Source of the DNA: a virus | Length of the DNA stretch: 64,000 bases | Virus record (IMG/VR): IMGVR_UViG_3300013306_000001 | Span: 26,096 to 90,095 of that record | Direction: 5' to 3' (one strand) | Part shown: in pieces, positions 1 to 62,463 of the stretch | How positions within the stretch are numbered: the first letter of the stretch is position 1 | How the letters are laid out: each line of letters begins with the position of its first letter | Notes under the pieces: generated by a model | Seen by the model: the letters and a program-made list of their open reading frames with translations, nothing else | Told to the model about the DNA's origin: nothing | Database searches by the model: none | Position numbers and translations under genes: made by a program

Positions 1-39
1 AGAAGAAGTCTAACTATAAATAATTATTTTCACAAACAC

Positions 40-68
40 TTGACTTTGAGAAATCTATAGAGTAGTAT
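40..68 (+). promoter_or_regulatory. sigma70-like promoter
   Basis: TTGACT(40-45)-17 nt-TAGTAT(63-68); same hexamers and spacing as the promoter at 54930-54958. Confidence 0.75.
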
Positions 69-110
69 GTTTCTTATAGAACTTAAATAACTTTGTGTTG
101 GAGGTGTAAT

Positions 111-302
111 ATCAGATGCCGATGCTGTAATTTACCTCTTTCGTGGAGGAATTTTAAAATGAAACAAGACGATGGAAGTGAAGAAGACTTCTGTACAAAC
201 TGCTTAAACATTGTCTATAACATAGATCAGTACGAACCAAGACAGTATACGTTTGAGCAAGAGTGTGATCCTTTCCATATTCCAGAAACATATATAGAAT
301 AA
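111..302 (+). CDS. small Cys-rich (putative Zn-binding) protein; probable ATC start
   Basis: RCRCCN...FCTNC; SD GGAGGT at 100-105 lies 5 nt before in-frame ATC; ORF track uses TTG at 93. Confidence 0.55.
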   Translation: MRCRCCNLPLSWRNFKMKQDDGSEEDFCTNCLNIVYNIDQYEPRQYTFEQECDPFHIPETYIE

Positions 303-399
303 ATAATGCTTGCTATTGTCATGTAATAATGTTACAATGTTGTATGGATGATATGTTTTATCTGAAAGCAAGCCTTGGTGATATGGCACAACTCTAGCC

Positions 400-785
400 A
401 TTTCCATATGTTCGTCGGTAGGGTGAGAGTAAGGCTAAAAAGATTTATGAGAAGCCAGATAACCCTTCATTTGGTTATTGAAAGGTCAGACTACCACTGA
501 CGGCAGCTACTGGGATACTTTGATATTCTGGTCTGACGCTGACACAGCTTCTCACTTAACACATTCAATCTTGACGGAGATTGTCTAATTCCCTTTAAGG
601 GGCTTGAAGAATTCTGACGAGAGTTTAAAGTCTTCCATTGTGTAACTGGGAGCAATGAATCAGCTGAAAGGCAAAAAGAGCATGCAGTTCAATTCTGCTC
701 GGTAGCTGAGGGTTGGTACGCAACCGTTCGATTCGGTTCTGGTCTATCTGGTGATAGAAGCTTGACTGATGGAAAGACATCACAA
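400..785 (+). ncRNA. structured non-coding region with multiple hairpins, including two T-loop-like arms
   Basis: No credible ORF; TGAGAAGC/GCTTCTCA and GTCAGAC/GTCTGAC pairings; GCAG-TTCAATT-CTGC (684-698) and AACCG-TTCGATT-CGGTT (722-738). Confidence 0.5.
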
Positions 786-790
786 ATTTC

Positions 791-873
791 GGATGAGTAG
801 TCCCAGGATTCTTCTAAAGTCCTACGGGTAATTGGAACTGTAAATGTGGGATCGTACCCCATCTCATCCTCCA
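791..873 (+). tRNA. aberrant tRNA-like RNA (Arg TCT-type anticodon hairpin, no normal D-arm)
   Basis: Acceptor GGATGAG/CTCATCC-T-CCA; T arm GTGGG-ATCGTAC-CCCAT; hairpin AGGATT-CTTCTAA-AGTCCT. Confidence 0.6.
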
Positions 874-882
874 AAGTTTCAC

Positions 883-1126
883 CCACAATCACTAAGATTA
901 AGTCTAAAAAGATTGTGGTATTCACGCTGTCATCTCCTCTCCTAAGACAGCACTTAAAGATATTTCAAGTCTCCTCTCACTCCTCATTCTTGAAATATCT
1001 TTGGCCTTGGATAGATTATAAGAGTTCTCTCCTTCTCGTATAATCTTCGCTAACAGGGCCATTTCTTAAGCGTTCTTCTTCATTATGAATACTACAGGGC
1101 ATAGCCGGTAAGTTCGCTTAAGAAAT
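883..1126 (+). ncRNA. multi-hairpin small RNA candidate with anti-Shine-Dalgarno loops
   Basis: Five consecutive inverted repeats; three have loops containing CTCCT. Confidence 0.6.
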
Positions 1127-1150
1127 CACTTATTCATAGGAATATACATT

Positions 1151-1549
1151 ATGACTACCAAGAATAAAAACCCTAGTCTGGCAACAAGATTTGACGGTCC
1201 AAAGTCAAATCGTAAAACCACTGGCGGAAATAGCAAACGAATCACTAAAAGCAAGCTTCGCATCCTAGAAGAACAGTTGCTTGAGATGAAAGATAAAGCT
1301 CTTGAGAACATCAAGAAGAGTATCAACGGCGAGCAGATTGATACTGAACAGCTTGGCTCAAGTAAGTGGTTGGTTAACAGCATCGTAACAGTCAGTAAAT
1401 CGGCTAATGCTGAAGAAATCTCTTACAACAAGCTTAAGTTTGAAGTGAAGGATTCTCTGGAAGCTGGTGAACAGACTCCTTCTGAAATCAAAGCAGAATT
1501 GAAACCTCGTTTGAGTCTAGTTTATACAGAACCTGATCAAGACGAGTAA
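1151..1549 (+). CDS. hypothetical protein, possible terminase small subunit
   Basis: 132 aa, basic N-terminus then helical region; upstream of the terminase region; function inferred only. Confidence 0.45.
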   Translation: MTTKNKNPSLATRFDGPKSNRKTTGGNSKRITKSKLRILEEQLLEMKDKALENIKKSINGEQIDTEQLGSSKWLVNSIVTVSKSANAEEISYNKLKFEVKDSLEAGEQTPSEIKAELKPRLSLVYTEPDQDE

Positions 1550-1694
1550 CTAACACGGCCACGGCCTGTGTATCGGACTGCCTAGTCTAAACCCGTACTT
1601 CTGGCGAAGTACATCTGTTAGTGAAAGGGATGGCCGTCCTTGTCTTGCCACATCAAGACTAGCTAGCACTTATTTAATCTATGTGGAGATATAT

Positions 1695-1784
1695 GGAACA
1701 GACGCCAGTATTAGTTTGCTGGCATCCACCTCATAAGTGGAAGTCTTTTGACCGTTGCGAGTGCAATTCTCGCCTGTTCCCCCA
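1695..1784 (+). tRNA. atypical tRNA with CAT anticodon (Met/Ile2-like)
   Basis: Acceptor GGAACAG/CTGTTCC-C-CCA; anticodon arm TCCAC-CTCATAA-GTGGA; T arm GCGAG-TGCAATT-CTCGC; 7-bp D stem; long variable arm. Confidence 0.75.
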
Positions 1785-1790
1785 AATTCT

Positions 1791-2519
1791 ATGAAATACA
1801 CTAAAGAAATACTTAAACAGAAACTGCTGGATTTTGTTGAAATATATAATAGGAATCCCACTGGCAGAGACTGTAAAAAGTACCCAGAAATATTAGTCGG
1901 TAAAAATACTTTCGTCAGATATTTTGGCTCATTTAATTCAGCCATTTTATATGCAGGACTAATTCCCTATACGAGAGATTTAAGAGACTATAAAACTATT
2001 TCTTGTGAATTCTGCAATATTGAGTTTATAGATAAAACTTGTGAAGCTAAGTTTTGTTCGAAGTCTTGTTATAATTCTTCAAGGAAAGATCAAGCTAAAA
2101 ATAGCAAACCCGACATAGTTATAAAGGTTTGCTTAGAGTGTAATTGTTCATTTGAATCTGACAAAAAGAGCAGAAAGGGAAATTTCTGTAATTTTATTTG
2201 TAGGTCTACCAATCAGATGAAGAACACTTCAATTGGTGAGATGTCTAGATATACTGAACAAAATAAATACCGAGCTATTAGAGATAAAGCACATAATTTC
2301 TATAACACTTTTGGTAAAAGTTGTTCTTGTGCAAATTGCGGTTACTCAAAGCATGTTGAGCTTTGTCATATAAAGGCAATTACTGATTTTGATAAATCAG
2401 AAAGTGTTTGGGAATGCAATAAACCCGAAAACATTATATTCTTATGTCCTAACTGTCACTGGGAGCTAGACTATGGCGACCTTTCAGTAGAAGATATAAG
2501 GGTTTGTAATTTGTCGTAA
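1791..2519 (+). CDS. HNH homing endonuclease with Zn-finger repeats
   Basis: RYFGSFNSAILYAGL repeat, CxxC..FCSxxC motifs, C-terminal CxxC..CHIK..N..LCPNCH; ATG at 1791 just after the tRNA. Confidence 0.8.
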   Translation: MKYTKEILKQKLLDFVEIYNRNPTGRDCKKYPEILVGKNTFVRYFGSFNSAILYAGLIPYTRDLRDYKTISCEFCNIEFIDKTCEAKFCSKSCYNSSRKDQAKNSKPDIVIKVCLECNCSFESDKKSRKGNFCNFICRSTNQMKNTSIGEMSRYTEQNKYRAIRDKAHNFYNTFGKSCSCANCGYSKHVELCHIKAITDFDKSESVWECNKPENIIFLCPNCHWELDYGDLSVEDIRVCNLS

Positions 2520-2542
2520 GTTCAAGTCTTACTGGACCCACC
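2500..2542 (+). pseudogene. tRNA remnant (T arm and 3' acceptor strand)
   Basis: GTAAG-TTCAAGT-CTTAC-TGGACCC-ACC overlapping the HNH stop codon. Confidence 0.55.
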
Positions 2543-2691
2543 CTACATTATAGTCAATTATATTCTTTGGTATAATTGATTCATGTGAAAGCAGACAAGG
2601 GCTGTCCAACTAAAAGCCTATGTTGTCTGTCTATAGGCTATAATACCCTTAAAACAAGACACCTAAAATAAATACAATATAAGGTGTTGCA

Positions 2692-2955
2692 ATGTCAGAT
2701 ACGATTGCAGATGTTATCTTAGATAACGTTAATTATCAGAATGTGAATGCTCTTTCAGGAATTCCTGTAGGAACTAAAGTTCTTCTCCAGTTCAAGGGTA
2801 GCGGTAACGTAAGGGTACAACTTAAACCATTTCAACCAGCCAGCTCTTCTGCCGACGGTCTTCAGTTGATCTCCTTTGAGATGTACATGATTGATCAAGG
2901 AGAGTCAATCATTTGGGCAAAGGGCACAGGCCGCCTTTGCGTACAGGTGGCTTGA
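2692..2955 (+). CDS. hypothetical protein (probably virion-associated)
   Basis: 87 aa, AAGGTG SD, coupled to the downstream fibre gene. Confidence 0.6.
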   Translation: MSDTIADVILDNVNYQNVNALSGIPVGTKVLLQFKGSGNVRVQLKPFQPASSSADGLQLISFEMYMIDQGESIIWAKGTGRLCVQVA

Positions 2956-2956
2956 T

Positions 2957-4294
2957 ATGCCAGTACGTCCAGTTTTTCCCGGAGAGGGTGGTGGTAATGG
3001 TACAGGTGCTGTAAATTCTGTGAATGGTGAGCAAGGTGATGTGATAATCACTGCTCAAGATTTGAATGCACAGCCCGCGTCTACAGTGCTTACAGATATT
3101 GCTGCTATTACAATGCCAGACAATAGTTTCCTACATACAGATGGTTCAGGAAGTTTTACACCATCCTTATGTATGCCTGCTGGTGTTGCTTGGTTGTCCT
3201 ATACAACTGTAGATCAGCAAAAAGAACACCTCGCATTGGCTGAAGTAGCAAGCTCTGGTGACTATAATGATTTAATCAACAAACCTACTTTGTTTGATGG
3301 AACTTACGCATCACTTATAGGTAAACCGACAAGCTTCACACCAGCAGCCCACACACATAGTATAAGTGACGTGACGGGTTTGCAAACAAACCTTGACTCA
3401 AAGCTCGGTATTGGCTCCAGTATTCCTTACAGTAGTTTGACAGGAACTCCTAGTATACCTGCCGCTCAAGTTAACAGTGACTGGACAGCAGTTAGCGGTA
3501 TTTCTCAGGTCTTAAACAAGCCTAACCTAGCAACCGTGGCTACCAGTGGAAGTTATGCTGATCTAACGAATAAGCCTGTAATTCCTTCGGTCAATTATCC
3601 AGTTACATCGGTAAATACTAAAACTGGTGTAGTAGTATTGACCAACGCTGATGTTGGAGCAGCAGCTTCTGTTCACACTCATACAATCAGTGACGTTACT
3701 GGTCTACAAAGTTCTCTTGACAGTAAAGCTAGTACAGCCTCTCTGTCAGTGTATGTGACCACGGGTTCGTTGAGTACAAGTCTAAGTGGTTATGCAACAA
3801 CATCTGCATTGACTTCAGGTCTTTCTTCAAAGTTTAATGCCCCAACAGGAACCGCATTACAATATGTACGTGGAGATGGTACACTAGCTCCTACTCCTAT
3901 AATACCTACAATTGTGAGTGCATTTAGCAATGATGCTGGATATCTTACAAATGCTGTTTTGCCAGTTTATAGGAGAGTTGATAACTCTATTGTAACTGCT
4001 CCTATAAAGGTAAAGTATTACACAGTGACAAGTGATAGCAGCTCTGTTTGGACTGTAGCTTTAGGAACTGATTTTACTGAAGTTTTGGATGTTCAAGTAC
4101 AACCAGTAAGCGTTTCTAATACGATTGCTGGAGTAAGGACTGCCAGTTTAAATGCTTACACAACTACAGCAACATCTATCTCTGGTATAACTTATGGTAA
4201 TAATGTATTGACAACTGTATTAGTTGGAGTAGGAGCTAACACCCTTGCACTGCTACCTTCTACGGTTGTTAGGGTTAGGGTTGAAGGAAAGTAG
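2957..4294 (+). CDS. fibre-like virion protein
   Basis: Repeats VNSVNG/VTSVNTKTG, VA(S/T)SGxYxDLxNKP, HTHxISDVTGLQ; Ser/Thr-rich; ATG at 2957. Confidence 0.7.
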   Translation: MPVRPVFPGEGGGNGTGAVNSVNGEQGDVIITAQDLNAQPASTVLTDIAAITMPDNSFLHTDGSGSFTPSLCMPAGVAWLSYTTVDQQKEHLALAEVASSGDYNDLINKPTLFDGTYASLIGKPTSFTPAAHTHSISDVTGLQTNLDSKLGIGSSIPYSSLTGTPSIPAAQVNSDWTAVSGISQVLNKPNLATVATSGSYADLTNKPVIPSVNYPVTSVNTKTGVVVLTNADVGAAASVHTHTISDVTGLQSSLDSKASTASLSVYVTTGSLSTSLSGYATTSALTSGLSSKFNAPTGTALQYVRGDGTLAPTPIIPTIVSAFSNDAGYLTNAVLPVYRRVDNSIVTAPIKVKYYTVTSDSSSVWTVALGTDFTEVLDVQVQPVSVSNTIAGVRTASLNAYTTTATSISGITYGNNVLTTVLVGVGANTLALLPSTVVRVRVEGK

Positions 4295-4954: not shown

Positions 4955-5542
4955 ATGAATGAAGTATTACTTACCCACGAGTATTTAAAAGAAGCTTTAA
5001 CTTATAATCCAGAAACTGGAAAGTTTACTTGGAGGTTGGATAGACCAGATTCACACTTCAAAGATTGGAGAGGTAAGAATGGCTTCTATAGTAATATTAG
5101 TCCTTCCTTAGAGGCGGGATCAGTATCAAGAGTGACCAAGAGAAATCCTTCATCATATATTGTAATCGGCCTTTGTGGAAAGCTTTATAAAGCCCACCGC
5201 CTTGCCTGGTTTTATGTAAACGGTGAATGGCCGTCCGAAGATATTGATCATATTGATTTAAATACTCAAAATAACGCAATATCTAATTTACAACTTAGTA
5301 TTGATAAACTTAACCACAGAAACCGTTCCAAATACAGTAATAATTCTTCTGGAGTTGTTGGTGTATCTTTCCATAAAAAGACTGGTAAATGGCAAGCTGA
5401 AGGTCAAGAAATTGTTGACGGTAAGAGAGTCAGACACTATTTAGGTCTATTTAAAAATCTAGAAGATGCAGCAAATGCTCGAAGAGATTGGGAAGTCGCG
5501 TACGGATATTCTGAAAATCATGGTAAAGAAATTTCCAGATGA
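4955..5542 (+). CDS. free-standing HNH homing endonuclease (HNH plus AP2-like domain)
   Basis: YNPETGKFTW, AHRLAWFY, IDHIDLNTQNNAISNL, SGVVGVS..KWQA..YLGLF. Confidence 0.85.
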   Translation: MNEVLLTHEYLKEALTYNPETGKFTWRLDRPDSHFKDWRGKNGFYSNISPSLEAGSVSRVTKRNPSSYIVIGLCGKLYKAHRLAWFYVNGEWPSEDIDHIDLNTQNNAISNLQLSIDKLNHRNRSKYSNNSSGVVGVSFHKKTGKWQAEGQEIVDGKRVRHYLGLFKNLEDAANARRDWEVAYGYSENHGKEISR

Positions 5543-7251
5543 CAGATATGGATTATAGTTTCCAGCCAGCTTCGCGAAAGCAAAGCTGGTTCTTGGCTAG
5601 CAATAGTAATATCATTGTATATGGTGGTGAACTTAGCGCCTCCATTTAAAACCCCTCTAATTCGGTGAAACCCAAACGTAAAGACGTGGGTAATACCGAG
5701 CGAAGACTTATTTATAAGTAACGTGTAGAGACTAACGCTGATGAATGTAAGCGAGTAGGTTGCAAGTGCAATCGAAACGGGGGGCTACGAAAGTAGAAGA
5801 TATAGTCCGATCCTTTGCGAAAGCGAAGAGAGTTTAACGAACTCTATAACTAAAAGGCTATGGGTGGTGGCAAGTCCTATTGTGGTTTGCTACGACATCT
5901 CCGCTGGGTTGACGATCCTCAGTATCGTGGATTCATTATCCGTAAAAACCAAACAACTTTGATGAAAGCTTCTGGTTTGTTTGACGAAGCTACCAGCTTA
6001 TATAAAGCGTTTGATCCTAAAGTAAAAATTAACAAAAAGGCTATGACCTTTACGTTCCCAAGTGGTGCCATTATTGCCATGTCTCACTTGGAAACTGACG
6101 AAGATGCAGAGAAATTTCGTGGCCTCCAAATTTCCGGGGCGATGATAGATGAAGCCACTCAGATAACCGAAGACCATACTCTGGTTGTATTATCTCGGCT
6201 GCGTTCTAAAGCAAAGATGGTTCCCAATCTTTTCCTGACTTGTAACCCTTCACCTGATTCTTTTTTGAGACGTTGGATTGATTGGTGGATTATTCCAAAA
6301 GGAGAAGAAAACGAAGGTCGGCCCGACCCCGAACGGGATGGTAAAGTTCGTTGGTTTATTCGAATCGCTGGTGACATGATTTGGGCAGACACAAAAGAGG
6401 AACTCCTGGAGATATACGGCAACAGAGACGGTGAAGGTAATATTTTACCGGACACAGATGAAAAACAACATTGTCGTCCACTGTCCCTACAGTTTATTTC
6501 AGCCACAATCTACGATAATCCGCCACTTATTAAATCCAACCCCGGATATCTTGCAAACCTTCAAGGTCTCAAGCGCGTAAAAAAGGAGCGCGACCTTTAC
6601 GGGAACTGGGATATTCGTGAGGATGCCGCAGGATTTTGGAAAGCGGAGTGGCTGGGTGAGCCCGTAAATGAATATGATTTAAATATTGTTCAATATTGTC
6701 GTGCATGGGATATTGCCGGAAGTTTACCTTGTGAAGCGTTGCCAAATCCTGATTGGACTGCTGGCGTTTTAATGGGTAAAACAAAAGAAGGTCTATATAT
6801 CATTCTAGATGTTGTTCGATTTAGGGCAAGATTTGGAGAGGTGATGCAGCGCATTGTAGAGACGGGCTTAGATGACCCCGATGGTACTCAAATCATTATT
6901 CCACAAGAGCCGGGCCAGGCAGGTAAAGCTGCTGGACAAATGATGATTAAAGAACTTATTTCTGAAGGTCTTTTCGCAAGAATGCGCCCGTCTAATAAGT
7001 CTAAGGTTGTACGGTTTCAACCAGTAGTTTCGGCATCGGAAGCGGGTCTTGTTCGTTATGTTCGCGGTGCATGGAATGATGCTTATTTCTCAGAGATGGA
7101 AGGCTTCGATGGAACCCGCGCTGTGAAGGATGACCAAGTTGATGCAACTAGTGACTCATTCATTACATTAGCACAGAAAATCCATATTGGTAATTTTCTT
7201 GGTGGTTTAGTAACTGCTGACCTCTCAACTAAAAATCCATTTAATCGCTAA
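5539..7251 (+). CDS. terL: terminase large subunit, join(5539..5628,5857..7251), 494 aa spliced
   Basis: Splicing restores Walker A IVYGG|AMGGGKS; Walker B MIDEA; TCNP; nuclease residues RAWD and DDQVDA. Confidence 0.92.
5629..5856 (+). mobile_element. ORF-less group I intron (IA2-like), 228 nt
   Basis: 5' exon ends in T and intron ends in G; IGS GCCTCCAT pairs with the 5' exon; P10 TAGC/GCTA; core AATTCGGTGAAA, AATACCGAG, GTAGAGACTA, AAGATATAGTCC; P7.1/P7.2, P8 and P9 hairpins. Confidence 0.93.
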
Positions 7252-54958: not shown

Positions 54959-54993
54959 GAGGGCTGTTGGATAAATTAGTGAGGAGAAAGATT

Positions 54994-61100: not shown

Positions 61101-62463
61101 TTAGCCGGTATTGGTCATGATGAACTACATGAACAGATTAGGGAACAAGTGAAAACTGAATTACTGGAGAAACTGAAATGAAACAGCCAAAGAAATCAGC
61201 CACTGTATCCGTCAAAGTATCTCAACAACAAATCCTAGACGCACAGAAATGGCTACAGTTTGTAGCCCATTGCCAAATCGCATGGGAAGAGCTTTCACCA
61301 GATTGGCAAGAGTTTTACTTTGCTATGGGAACGACAGAATGTACTTCTGATGAACTGAACAGCCTTATTACAATTGCTATTGAAGGAGAGGAGGAATGAA
61401 TTTTAATGACTGGTGGCTATCCTTATCAGAAGGTAGACGATCCGTGTTAGTTCAAGACAAATGGATGCTTGCCAACGCAGCTTTTGAGGCAGCCATACAC
61501 TTAGCTAAACCCTTGGCTGAGATTAAATTTGTTGATTACCCCTCTCAAGCTGGAACTAACTACTGGACAGTTTGCAATACAGGAGCTACAGTTATCTTAA
61601 AAACAAAAGAAGAAGCTGTGGAATGGGCTATCAAATCGGGTATGAGGGTTGAATAGATGATCATGTCAAATTCACTTACAGATATGGAAGAAATGGATAT
61701 AGCAGCCCATGCTCTGGAATGTAAAACTAAGAACTGGCAAAAAGCGTTACCTTCTTACAGAGTCAAAAGGATTATCGATGCATTGAGTAATTCAGGAATC
61801 AAAATTGAGTTATATACTGCTGATTTTAACTGTCTTATTGATTATCTTGAGGATTAACCATGAACATCCTACAATTACGTGACACACTCCGCCAAGCAGA
61901 GAAAGCTTACACTAAAGCTAAAACTAGCTTGGACGGGAGTATAGAACTAATCCAAGCAAAGTCAGCTTTGAAAGATGCAAGGTTTAATTATGCGGAGGCT
62001 GCTATGGATTATGTTGAGGAGATGATAGTGATGGGAGAATTGAAATGAGTAAAGCTAAACCTACATCGGTTTATGTGATTCGCCAGCTCTCAACAGGAAC
62101 TCTTGTTAAGTTTGGTACAAAGTGTGGCTCGAGTTCACAAGGTGCCGCTAAAGCAGCATTTTGTCTACATATGAAGTACCTCTACCGAGATGTTATTTAT
62201 GATACTGGAGTTGGTGTGTTTGATGAACAAAATGAATTTGTAATTGAAGAAATCTCCTAGAGAATAAAACCATGAAACTCCTAAAAGATATAACAACAAT
62301 ATTCATTATTCTATTCACATCTATCATAGCCTTGGGAGCAATTGTTGTTCTCTTTAAGGCTATCTTCGTTTCAATAGCTAATTTATTTGTGTGTATTGTG
62401 CTTGTGTTGGTGGTGAGTGTGGTGTATTCTCTTGGAAGGTTGATTGTTAAGGAATATAAATAG
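58194..62463 (+). other. array of about 20 small hypothetical early CDS
   Basis: Overlapping ATGA/TAATG junctions; SD motifs. Confidence 0.65.
60913..60941 (+). promoter_or_regulatory. sigma70-like promoter
   Basis: TTGACA-17 nt-TAAGCT. Confidence 0.65.

Follow-up and report, generated by a model that had tools for sequence, protein, structure and literature searches.

The stretch of DNA analysed here (the window, 64,000 nucleotides in length) comprises bases 26096-90095 of the 90,095-bp IMG/VR virus record IMGVR_UViG_3300013306_000001, which has direct terminal repeats and encodes a large terminase sharing ~44% identity with its counterparts in Pseudomonas myoviruses of the PAK_P1, PAK_P3 and Otagovirus kinds. 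On the plus strand a tRNA-like element (792-873) is followed by an array of hairpins (874-1126) and then by an open reading frame (ORF) of 132 amino acids (1151-1549). The array, referred to below as the element, sits in the phage tRNA cluster and runs in the same direction as the tRNAs and the structural genes. The plus strand of 874-1126 belongs to a conserved family of structured phage RNAs, ~250 nucleotides (nt) long, that has not been catalogued before. A sequence search found no cultured phage that shares the region at the DNA level, and the public run that holds the sequence best is a rhizosphere metagenome, which may be the source sample.

The minimum-free-energy structure obtained with RNAfold for the plus strand of 875-1135 consists of five hairpins (H1-H5) with an energy of -73.2 kcal/mol. 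Shuffled versions of this segment averaged -44.0 +/- 4.3 kcal/mol (z -6.88), none of 200 being as stable, and the fold of the minus strand gave a z of -3.16. A preliminary description, made from the sequence alone, had placed five hairpins behind a CCA end and had drawn attention to three exposed CU-rich loops; all of its coordinates proved right, and the three loops, those of H2, H3 and H4, have mean unpaired probabilities of 0.99-1.0 in the structural ensemble.

All parts of the element are read on the plus strand. At its start lies a conserved 5′ motif, AAGUUUCAC(C) (874-882), with a mean column identity of 0.90 over nine columns in 10 sequences. Its first base comes after the 3′ end of a tRNA in some relatives and after a stop codon in others, with AAGUUUCACC directly behind the ORF stop codon in the latter, and the motif is therefore presumed to mark a processing site and the 5′ end of the RNA. 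H1 (883-918) is predicted by RNAfold to form an 8-bp stem around a small inner hairpin. H2 (926-951) has a 6-bp stem (GCTGTC/GACAGC) closing the loop ATCTCCTCTCCTAA (as RNA, AUCUCCUCUCCUAA; unpaired probability 0.99). A conserved linker, ACUU, precedes H3 (956-1002), in which a perfect 14-bp stem carries the 19-nt loop UCUCCUCUCACUCCUCAUU (unpaired probability 1.0). H4 (1003-1060) is built from an outer stem (GGCCUUG/CAGGGCC) and an inner stem (1013-1046), and its loop, TTCTCTCCTT (as RNA, UUCUCUCCUU), is the most conserved of all. H5 (1061-1126) is a long branched hairpin whose base, AUUUCUUAAG/CUUAAGAAAU, is conserved and which no U tract follows; it was found in relatives too, was left out of the covariance models described below, and is presumed to be the 3′ boundary or a processing site.

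The tRNA-like element was recognized by eye from a 7-bp acceptor stem (GGATGAG/CTCATCC), a T arm (GTGGG-ATCGTAC-CCCAT) and a CCA at 871-873. The preliminary description had called it a tRNA-like gene, but a normal D arm is missing and neither ARAGORN nor Rfam (RF00005) calls a tRNA at 792-873. The T arm, with its unusual loop ATCGTAC, matches that of the relatives' tRNA-Arg(TCT), and judging from this likeness the tRNA-like element probably derives from a tRNA-Arg(TCT) that has decayed but was retained as a processing handle. The element follows its CCA directly in the window. Among relatives, a tRNA ends 0-2 nt before it in L050 (tRNA-Arg(tct)) and in L055 (tRNA-Pro). A tRNA-Arg(tct) also precedes it in L058 and, at a distance of 357 nt, in L048; in four members a tRNA-Met is found 0.8-1.2 kb downstream.

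A consensus scan revealed no promoter-like site directly upstream of the element. The same scan, and no other evidence, gave a sigma-70-like promoter candidate at 310-338 on the plus strand (TTGCTA-17-TACAAT with TG), which is a possible start of the element-bearing transcript; the scan is weak (11 sites versus 7.3 +/- 2.4 in shuffles), and relatives have ORFs or tRNAs directly upstream, not this candidate. No terminator-like site was found in 874-1150, where no G+C-rich hairpin is followed by the U tract of an intrinsic terminator, and the sole such site in 1-3000 is at 1725-1741. As no promoter or terminator flanks the element, the RNA would be cut from a longer transcript or would stay part of it. 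Contigs from three RNA libraries cover parts of near relatives (X24, 873-957; X22, 1038-1161; X23, 817-901), X24 continuing into an H3 of the L002 type; the parts that these contigs leave uncovered carry no meaning.

The 132-amino-acid ORF starts 24 nt after H5 and encodes a basic N terminus followed by a predicted helical remainder. It matches no PHROG or Pfam family, and the Atlas yielded a lead only, to a cluster with 37% DUF5681 members (score 0.92, rank 30). The ORF lies directly behind the element in most relatives, is replaced by another neighbour in L007 and L011, and is farther off in G005. It is a conserved neighbour of the element, not an established partner.

Covariation, coding strand and loop motif

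Relatives were sought in 45 related IMG/VR records, nine of them loci reached through the 132-amino-acid ORF and 36 reached through the portal protein. Inspection by eye and single-sequence folding showed the same architecture on different stems. Alignments based on sequence only scrambled the stems (RNAalifold on one of these, A2, returned 0 pairs), and a covariance model, R1, was therefore seeded with the window's own fold and then iterated to a second model, R2. R1 matched 10 of the 45 sources. R2 matched 12 of the 45 related records (13 with filters off), among them 6 of the 18 with a completeness of 90% or more, and also 2 of 9 metagenome stretches; it matched none of five cultured Pseudomonas relatives, PAK_P3 among them. 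Specificity was controlled with a loose-pattern scan of viral contigs, in which 80 of 108 stretches were examined and R2 matched two, both known members. There is one copy of the element per genome, and members are limited to a close clade with portal identities of ~75-98%; records at 42-50% gave no match.

In the R1 alignment of 10 sequences, 96.6% of 415 cells are standard pairs and 36 of the 50 pairs change on both sides, a level of covariation that none of 500 column shuffles attained. In a second control, in which the 3′ partners were displaced by 1-3 columns, pairing fell to 37-45%. Fitting the alignment to the structure favours such pairing figures, and held-out sequences were used as a check: three sequences outside the training of R2 keep 39 of 39, 37 of 40 and 39 of 42 pairs. 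The changes are spread over the hairpins, with all eight outer pairs of H1 altered on both sides (helix 1) and compensatory changes in three of the six pairs of H2 (helix 3), 10 of the 14 of H3 (helix 4) and 14 of the 18 of H4 (helices 5-7).

The stems contain 27 G-U or U-G pairs against a single A-C or C-A in the 10 sequences, and 36 against four when 13 rows are counted. Since wobble pairs on the plus strand are mismatches on the minus strand, this asymmetry argues that the CU-rich plus strand is the functional one, and from the pairing pattern we take that strand to be the RNA. The flanking tRNAs and ORFs all lie on the same strand.

The loops behave differently from the stems that carry them. 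Among the 30 loops of H2-H4 in 10 members, 28 contain UCUCCU and 23 contain CUCUCCU, and the loops are 90% pyrimidine. Conservation is highest in H4, where the loop columns are 90% identical versus 67% for paired columns, and where CUCUCCU occurs in nine of 10 loops. The preliminary description had expected stems to covary and loops to be conserved across related phages, and both expectations were borne out.

A descriptor for single hairpins was also tried and proved too loose, giving 62 single matches on the plus strand of the window's own genome and missing the bulged H4; the extra clusters that it produced (L024-, L032- and G003 at 44.2-44.5 kb) were dropped as lying in or antisense to coding sequence. 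Separately from the family, positions 7470-7560 of L020 (genome G018, portal 47% identical) hold two hairpins with the loops CCUCUCCUCCUC and UUUCCCUCC, directly behind an ORF and ~2.5 kb upstream of the portal gene. R2 does not match these hairpins, and the pair may be a distant, simpler analogue.

Complementarity of the loops to ribosome-binding sites

According to the preliminary description, the loops are exact complements of ribosome-binding sites (RBSs) in the early and middle regions, and many structural genes use other Shine-Dalgarno (SD) sequences. The quoted complements were recovered by script: perfect loop complements of at least 8 nt occur at 61383, 62825, 51628(-), 53949(-) and 60963, 2-7 nt before called starts, and the sites at 54980 and 59651 are GAGGAGA-type leaders with shorter matches. 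The use of AAGGAT, AAGGTA and AAGGAA by structural genes was confirmed as well.

These matches were then set against the whole of the window's own genome (G000), for which 189 ORFs were obtained by crude gene calling. Non-self sites with a perfect complement of at least 8 nt number 54, and 21 of them lie 1-16 nt before a called start, in windows that account for 1.7% of positions. On the plus strand of the structural block, 0 of 7 such sites is at an RBS. Counted by gene, RBSs with a perfect complement of at least 8 nt number 0 of 32 for structural genes versus 22 of 157 for the others (p 0.029), one of the 22 belonging to a spurious ORF antisense to the element.

Duplex energies in G000 point the same way. 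Loop-RBS duplexes have means of -9.6 to -10.7 kcal/mol in the three non-structural modules versus -7.3 kcal/mol in the structural one (Mann-Whitney p 4e-6). The difference persists once a baseline from internal windows is subtracted (p 0.001), and a generic anti-SD probe gave no such separation of the modules (p 0.09). Leaders of the form GGAGA[AG] precede 33 of 134 non-structural versus 2 of 37 structural genes (p 0.01). A 10-nt consensus probe gave a weak RBS bias in G000 (p 0.034), which was not significant in the relatives G003 and G008. The preference for early and middle over late RBSs that had been proposed is thus found in G000, but not, as described below, when G003 and G008 are examined with their own loops.

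Proposed action of the RNA and its alternatives

We give even odds to our preferred reading, in which the element yields a processed RNA that masks SD sequences of the AGGAGA(G) type at several places through its open CUCUCCU loops. The ground for this reading is what the analysis showed: a conserved, covarying fold, its strand, the motif in its loops, its place in the tRNA cluster and loop sequences complementary to RBSs. The element would be transcribed together with the phage tRNA cluster, and its 5′ end would be freed by the enzymes that trim the adjoining tRNA, here the degenerate tRNA-Arg-like handle. Such release may occur at an AAG/UUUCACC junction, where AG|UUU would suit the cleavage preference of RNase E. 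It would then fold into five hairpins, of which H2-H4 would present (C)UCUCCU in open loops. In vivo, these loops would pair with the AGGAGA(G)-type SD sequences of mRNAs and block binding of the 30S subunit, several sites being engaged per RNA, so that whichever messages are hit would be repressed. The preliminary description had gone further and proposed an early-to-late switch. Support for such a switch is partial: the complementarity bias of G000 does not extend to the two relatives, there is no conserved phage target, and the switch, its timing and any repression are inferences.

Several observations weigh against masking by a free RNA. Neither a promoter nor a terminator of its own flanks the element, and a separate RNA may never exist. 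The RNA-library contigs give no strand, ends or level, and DNA carry-over could account for them. A portal-protein scan of genome contigs, which might have pointed to the host, returned no relative. Gene calls and start choices are crude and were made for this analysis, and the energy difference between modules is partly compositional, as internal windows differ too (p 2e-5). When the relatives' own loops were used, the RBS bias was absent both in G003 (2 of 26 structural versus 10 of 149 other genes) and in G008 (1 of 29 versus 12 of 138). Moreover, RBSs complementary to the window's loops occur at 18 of 174, 6 of 176 and 11 of 157 non-structural genes in three related phages without a model match; two of these phages resemble element-carrying relatives and only G038 nears the 22 of 157 of G000, and the structural homologues in G038 (7) and G017 (4) are too few to test module bias. 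Orthology gives a similar picture: 13 of the 14 G000 genes with an AGGAGAG or GGAGAGG leader have no ortholog in G003, none of 65 G000-G003 ortholog pairs shares such a leader, and for the 48 genes that have an ortholog in G003 as well as in G008 the motif is in no G000 or G003 leader. Finally, a protein-binding site could be expected to show just such an invariant 7-mer.

Without a conserved phage target, the invariance of the loop motif is not explained by co-evolution with one conserved phage gene. The constant partner of the loops must be a host RNA, a protein, or a class of fast-turnover small genes with purine-rich leaders. Because no conserved phage gene has a complementary leader, host mRNAs or a whole class of fast-evolving early phage genes are more likely partners than one phage gene. 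Only ~65 of the 189 crude ORFs of G000 have an ortholog in the close relative G003, and the small-gene modules thus turn over fast. A bolder proposal, which we put forward tentatively and consider rather doubtful, is that the phages of this clade use tRNA-processing enzymes to free a multivalent anti-SD RNA that would reprogram the translation of messages as a class. Such an RNA would parallel T4 RegB, with loops tuned to a constant partner on the host side (AGGAGAG-led host mRNAs, or a factor recognizing the 3′ tail of 16S rRNA) and not to a single phage gene.

The flanks of the element lend themselves to a cis-acting role as well, in which the array would stay in the long transcript and act on the genes behind it, namely the 132-amino-acid ORF and the structural operon. 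It could be a site of processing, stabilise the 5′ end left by cleavage, or modify RNA polymerase as an antiterminator in the manner of HK022 put. Consistent with this, no terminator-like site separates the element from the start of the ORF and no promoter-like site lies directly upstream, the ORF is directly behind the element in most relatives, and the long H5 stem with its conserved base resembles a processing hairpin. However, loops that are more conserved than stems (0.90 for the H4 loop versus 0.67 for paired columns) would be needless in a pure stabiliser, the downstream neighbour differs in L007 and L011 and the ORF is farther away in G005, and the ORF's own RBS, UAGGAAU, is a poor loop complement. 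We therefore consider a cis-acting leader unlikely. A further possibility is a decoy, in which the repeated loops would titrate a host or phage RNA-binding protein that reads pyrimidine-rich loops or the 16S rRNA 3′ tail; ribosomal protein S1, a KH-domain protein such as Era, and an anti-SD-targeting defence nuclease are candidates. Known sponge RNAs share the multivalent architecture seen here, in which CUCUCCU is displayed by 23 of 30 loops on stems of unrelated sequence. The motif is constant though no conserved phage RBS matches it, and phages that have the element and phages that lack it overlap in how often complementary RBSs occur. Set against this, no protein is co-conserved except the uncharacterised 132-amino-acid ORF, and to our knowledge no bacterial or phage protein is specific for CUCUCCU loops; we consider a decoy about as unlikely as a cis-acting leader.

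Two further explanations fare much worse. The preliminary description had offered, as its alternative, a minus-strand transcript with GGA-bearing loops that would sponge CsrA/RsmA, and the reverse complement does show AGGAGAGG, which contains GGA, in hairpin loops. The stems argue for the opposite strand, as the ratios of G-U to A-C (27:1 and 36:4) mean that many pairs would become C-A mismatches on the minus strand, and the fold of that strand is far less exceptional (z -3.16 versus -6.88). The neighbouring genes and tRNAs are all on the plus strand, and Rfam searches found no CsrB, RsmY or RsmZ at E values up to 10 in the window and up to 1 in relatives. The GGA loops that CsrB, RsmY and RsmZ carry on the transcribed strand are here confined to the disfavoured one, and we reject this alternative as barely credible. 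That the locus has no RNA function, being a chance cluster of hairpins or a DNA-level packaging or replication signal, might be entertained because the expression evidence is limited to RNA-library contigs. It is very unlikely given covariation far above both controls, held-out members that keep their pairs, and G-U pairs that are tolerated on one strand only.

Related RNAs, genomic surroundings and implications

In its design the element has counterparts among known RNAs. The accessible, RBS-complementary seed of an SD-masking, trans-acting small RNA (sRNA) is present, the loops being ~99% unpaired and 21 of the 54 sites lying at RBSs. The preliminary description had left novelty to an Rfam search, in which no family reached its cut-off in the window. 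An Rfam search at E values up to 1 gave no hammerhead ribozyme in the loci of the 13 relatives. The only recurrent sub-threshold family was ar14 (RF02344), scoring 17.8 bits in the window and, in the two relatives that scored highest, 24.9 and 33.6 bits; its cut-off is 58.8 bits. This family corresponds to the cuckoo or alpha-r14 RNAs of Alphaproteobacteria (RSs0680/CcsR, SmelC397/NfeR1), and cuckoo RNAs carry an anti-SD-like loop motif on 2-4 variable hairpins (PMC4615179). The likeness lies in adjacent, variable-stem hairpins that share such a motif, and H2-H4 of the phage element, three motif-bearing neighbours with covarying stems, have this arrangement. The motifs differ, however, being CCUCCUCCC in the cuckoo RNAs as described in that source (PMC4615179) and CUCUCCU in the phage family; tested as CCTCCTCCC, the cuckoo motif was found in none of the 10 aligned members. 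The cuckoo RNAs are encoded on alphaproteobacterial replicons, whereas the phage RNA is encoded in the tRNA cluster of a 90-kb virus, and it has the extra hairpins H1 and H5 and the conserved 5′ motif, unlike the cuckoo RNAs. By analogy, the phage RNA would work like a cuckoo RNA from outside the cuckoo family; the likeness is one of design, and common descent is not established.

In Firmicutes, RsaE/RoxS and LhrC are C/U-rich-loop sRNAs that mask SD sequences. To the same kind belongs S. aureus RNAIII, which, as summarized in one source, places UCCC hairpin loops on RBSs (PMC4615179). The phage element resembles these RNAs in having several open loops that are thought to contact RBSs first. 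They differ from it in being chromosomal, with a promoter and a terminator of their own, and in sequence, which is unrelated and gave no Rfam match here. The phage RNA is thus a new family within the known kind of C/U-rich-loop sRNA.

Among phage systems, T4 RegB is described as inactivating early mRNAs through GGAG(R) leaders (PMC3014915). It would be a functional analogue, insofar as a phage there shuts off early genes through GGAG and purines at initiation regions; it differs in being a protein nuclease helped by S1, and no cleavage is implied for the phage RNA. In position, the closest counterparts are ncRNA1 and ncRNA2 of PAK_P3, non-coding RNAs that a published account reports as located beside tRNAs, without a start site of their own, processed, and abundant late (PMC10914365). 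They are likewise small RNAs beside phage tRNA genes upstream of packaging genes (KC862299.1). As homologues they were rejected: sequences and folds are unrelated, ncRNA2 is tRNA-like, neither has CU-rich loops, and R2 finds nothing in PAK_P3. The tRNA cluster of T4 also encodes stable RNAs. A limited set of papers was searched and gave no description of the RNA reported here, and a 2025 review of phage sRNAs, as far as its accessible text goes, deals mostly with prophage sRNAs and names none of this design (PMC12197685).

The surroundings of the element hold further features. Positions 340-791 form a stretch of ~450 nt without a credible ORF, which shows no excess folding stability (z -0.16) and no Rfam match. 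Within it, bases 496-576 are 77-78% identical to stretches in six Pseudomonas phage records, of which three lie under homing or HNH endonuclease genes, two lie under no feature and one is in an unannotated record; the blocks 438-510 and 557-660 recur in contigs of relatives. Downstream, a 90-nt tRNA-Met(CAT) call (1695-1784) and an HNH endonuclease ORF (1755/1800-2519, phrog_1271) fall in a block, 1555-2546, that contigs of relatives skip by linking ~1554-1595 to ~2509-2547, and the block thus behaves as a mobile insertion. A second HNH endonuclease gene (4955-5542) lies directly upstream of a group I intron (5603-5829; Rfam RF00028, 71.5 bits), which is found just before the large-terminase ORF (5860-7251). 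On a larger scale, the coding strands of the non-structural modules (window 30.7-64 kb, genome 1-24 kb) are markedly G-rich, with a GC skew of ~0.2 in magnitude, and the structural module shows hardly any skew.

Little is known about the regulatory RNAs of virulent phages, and the comparative support for this one is unusually clean. Its architecture points to one testable action, the masking of several ribosome-binding sites at once, and its position suggests release by tRNA processing. If this is true, phages would have evolved a way to shut off translation of a whole class of messages with an RNA, where T4 uses a nuclease, and the element would offer a compact module, free of an Hfq tail, for synthetic control of translation. 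The family also shows that the cuckoo-like design, in which one loop motif is carried on many stems, arose outside the Alphaproteobacteria.

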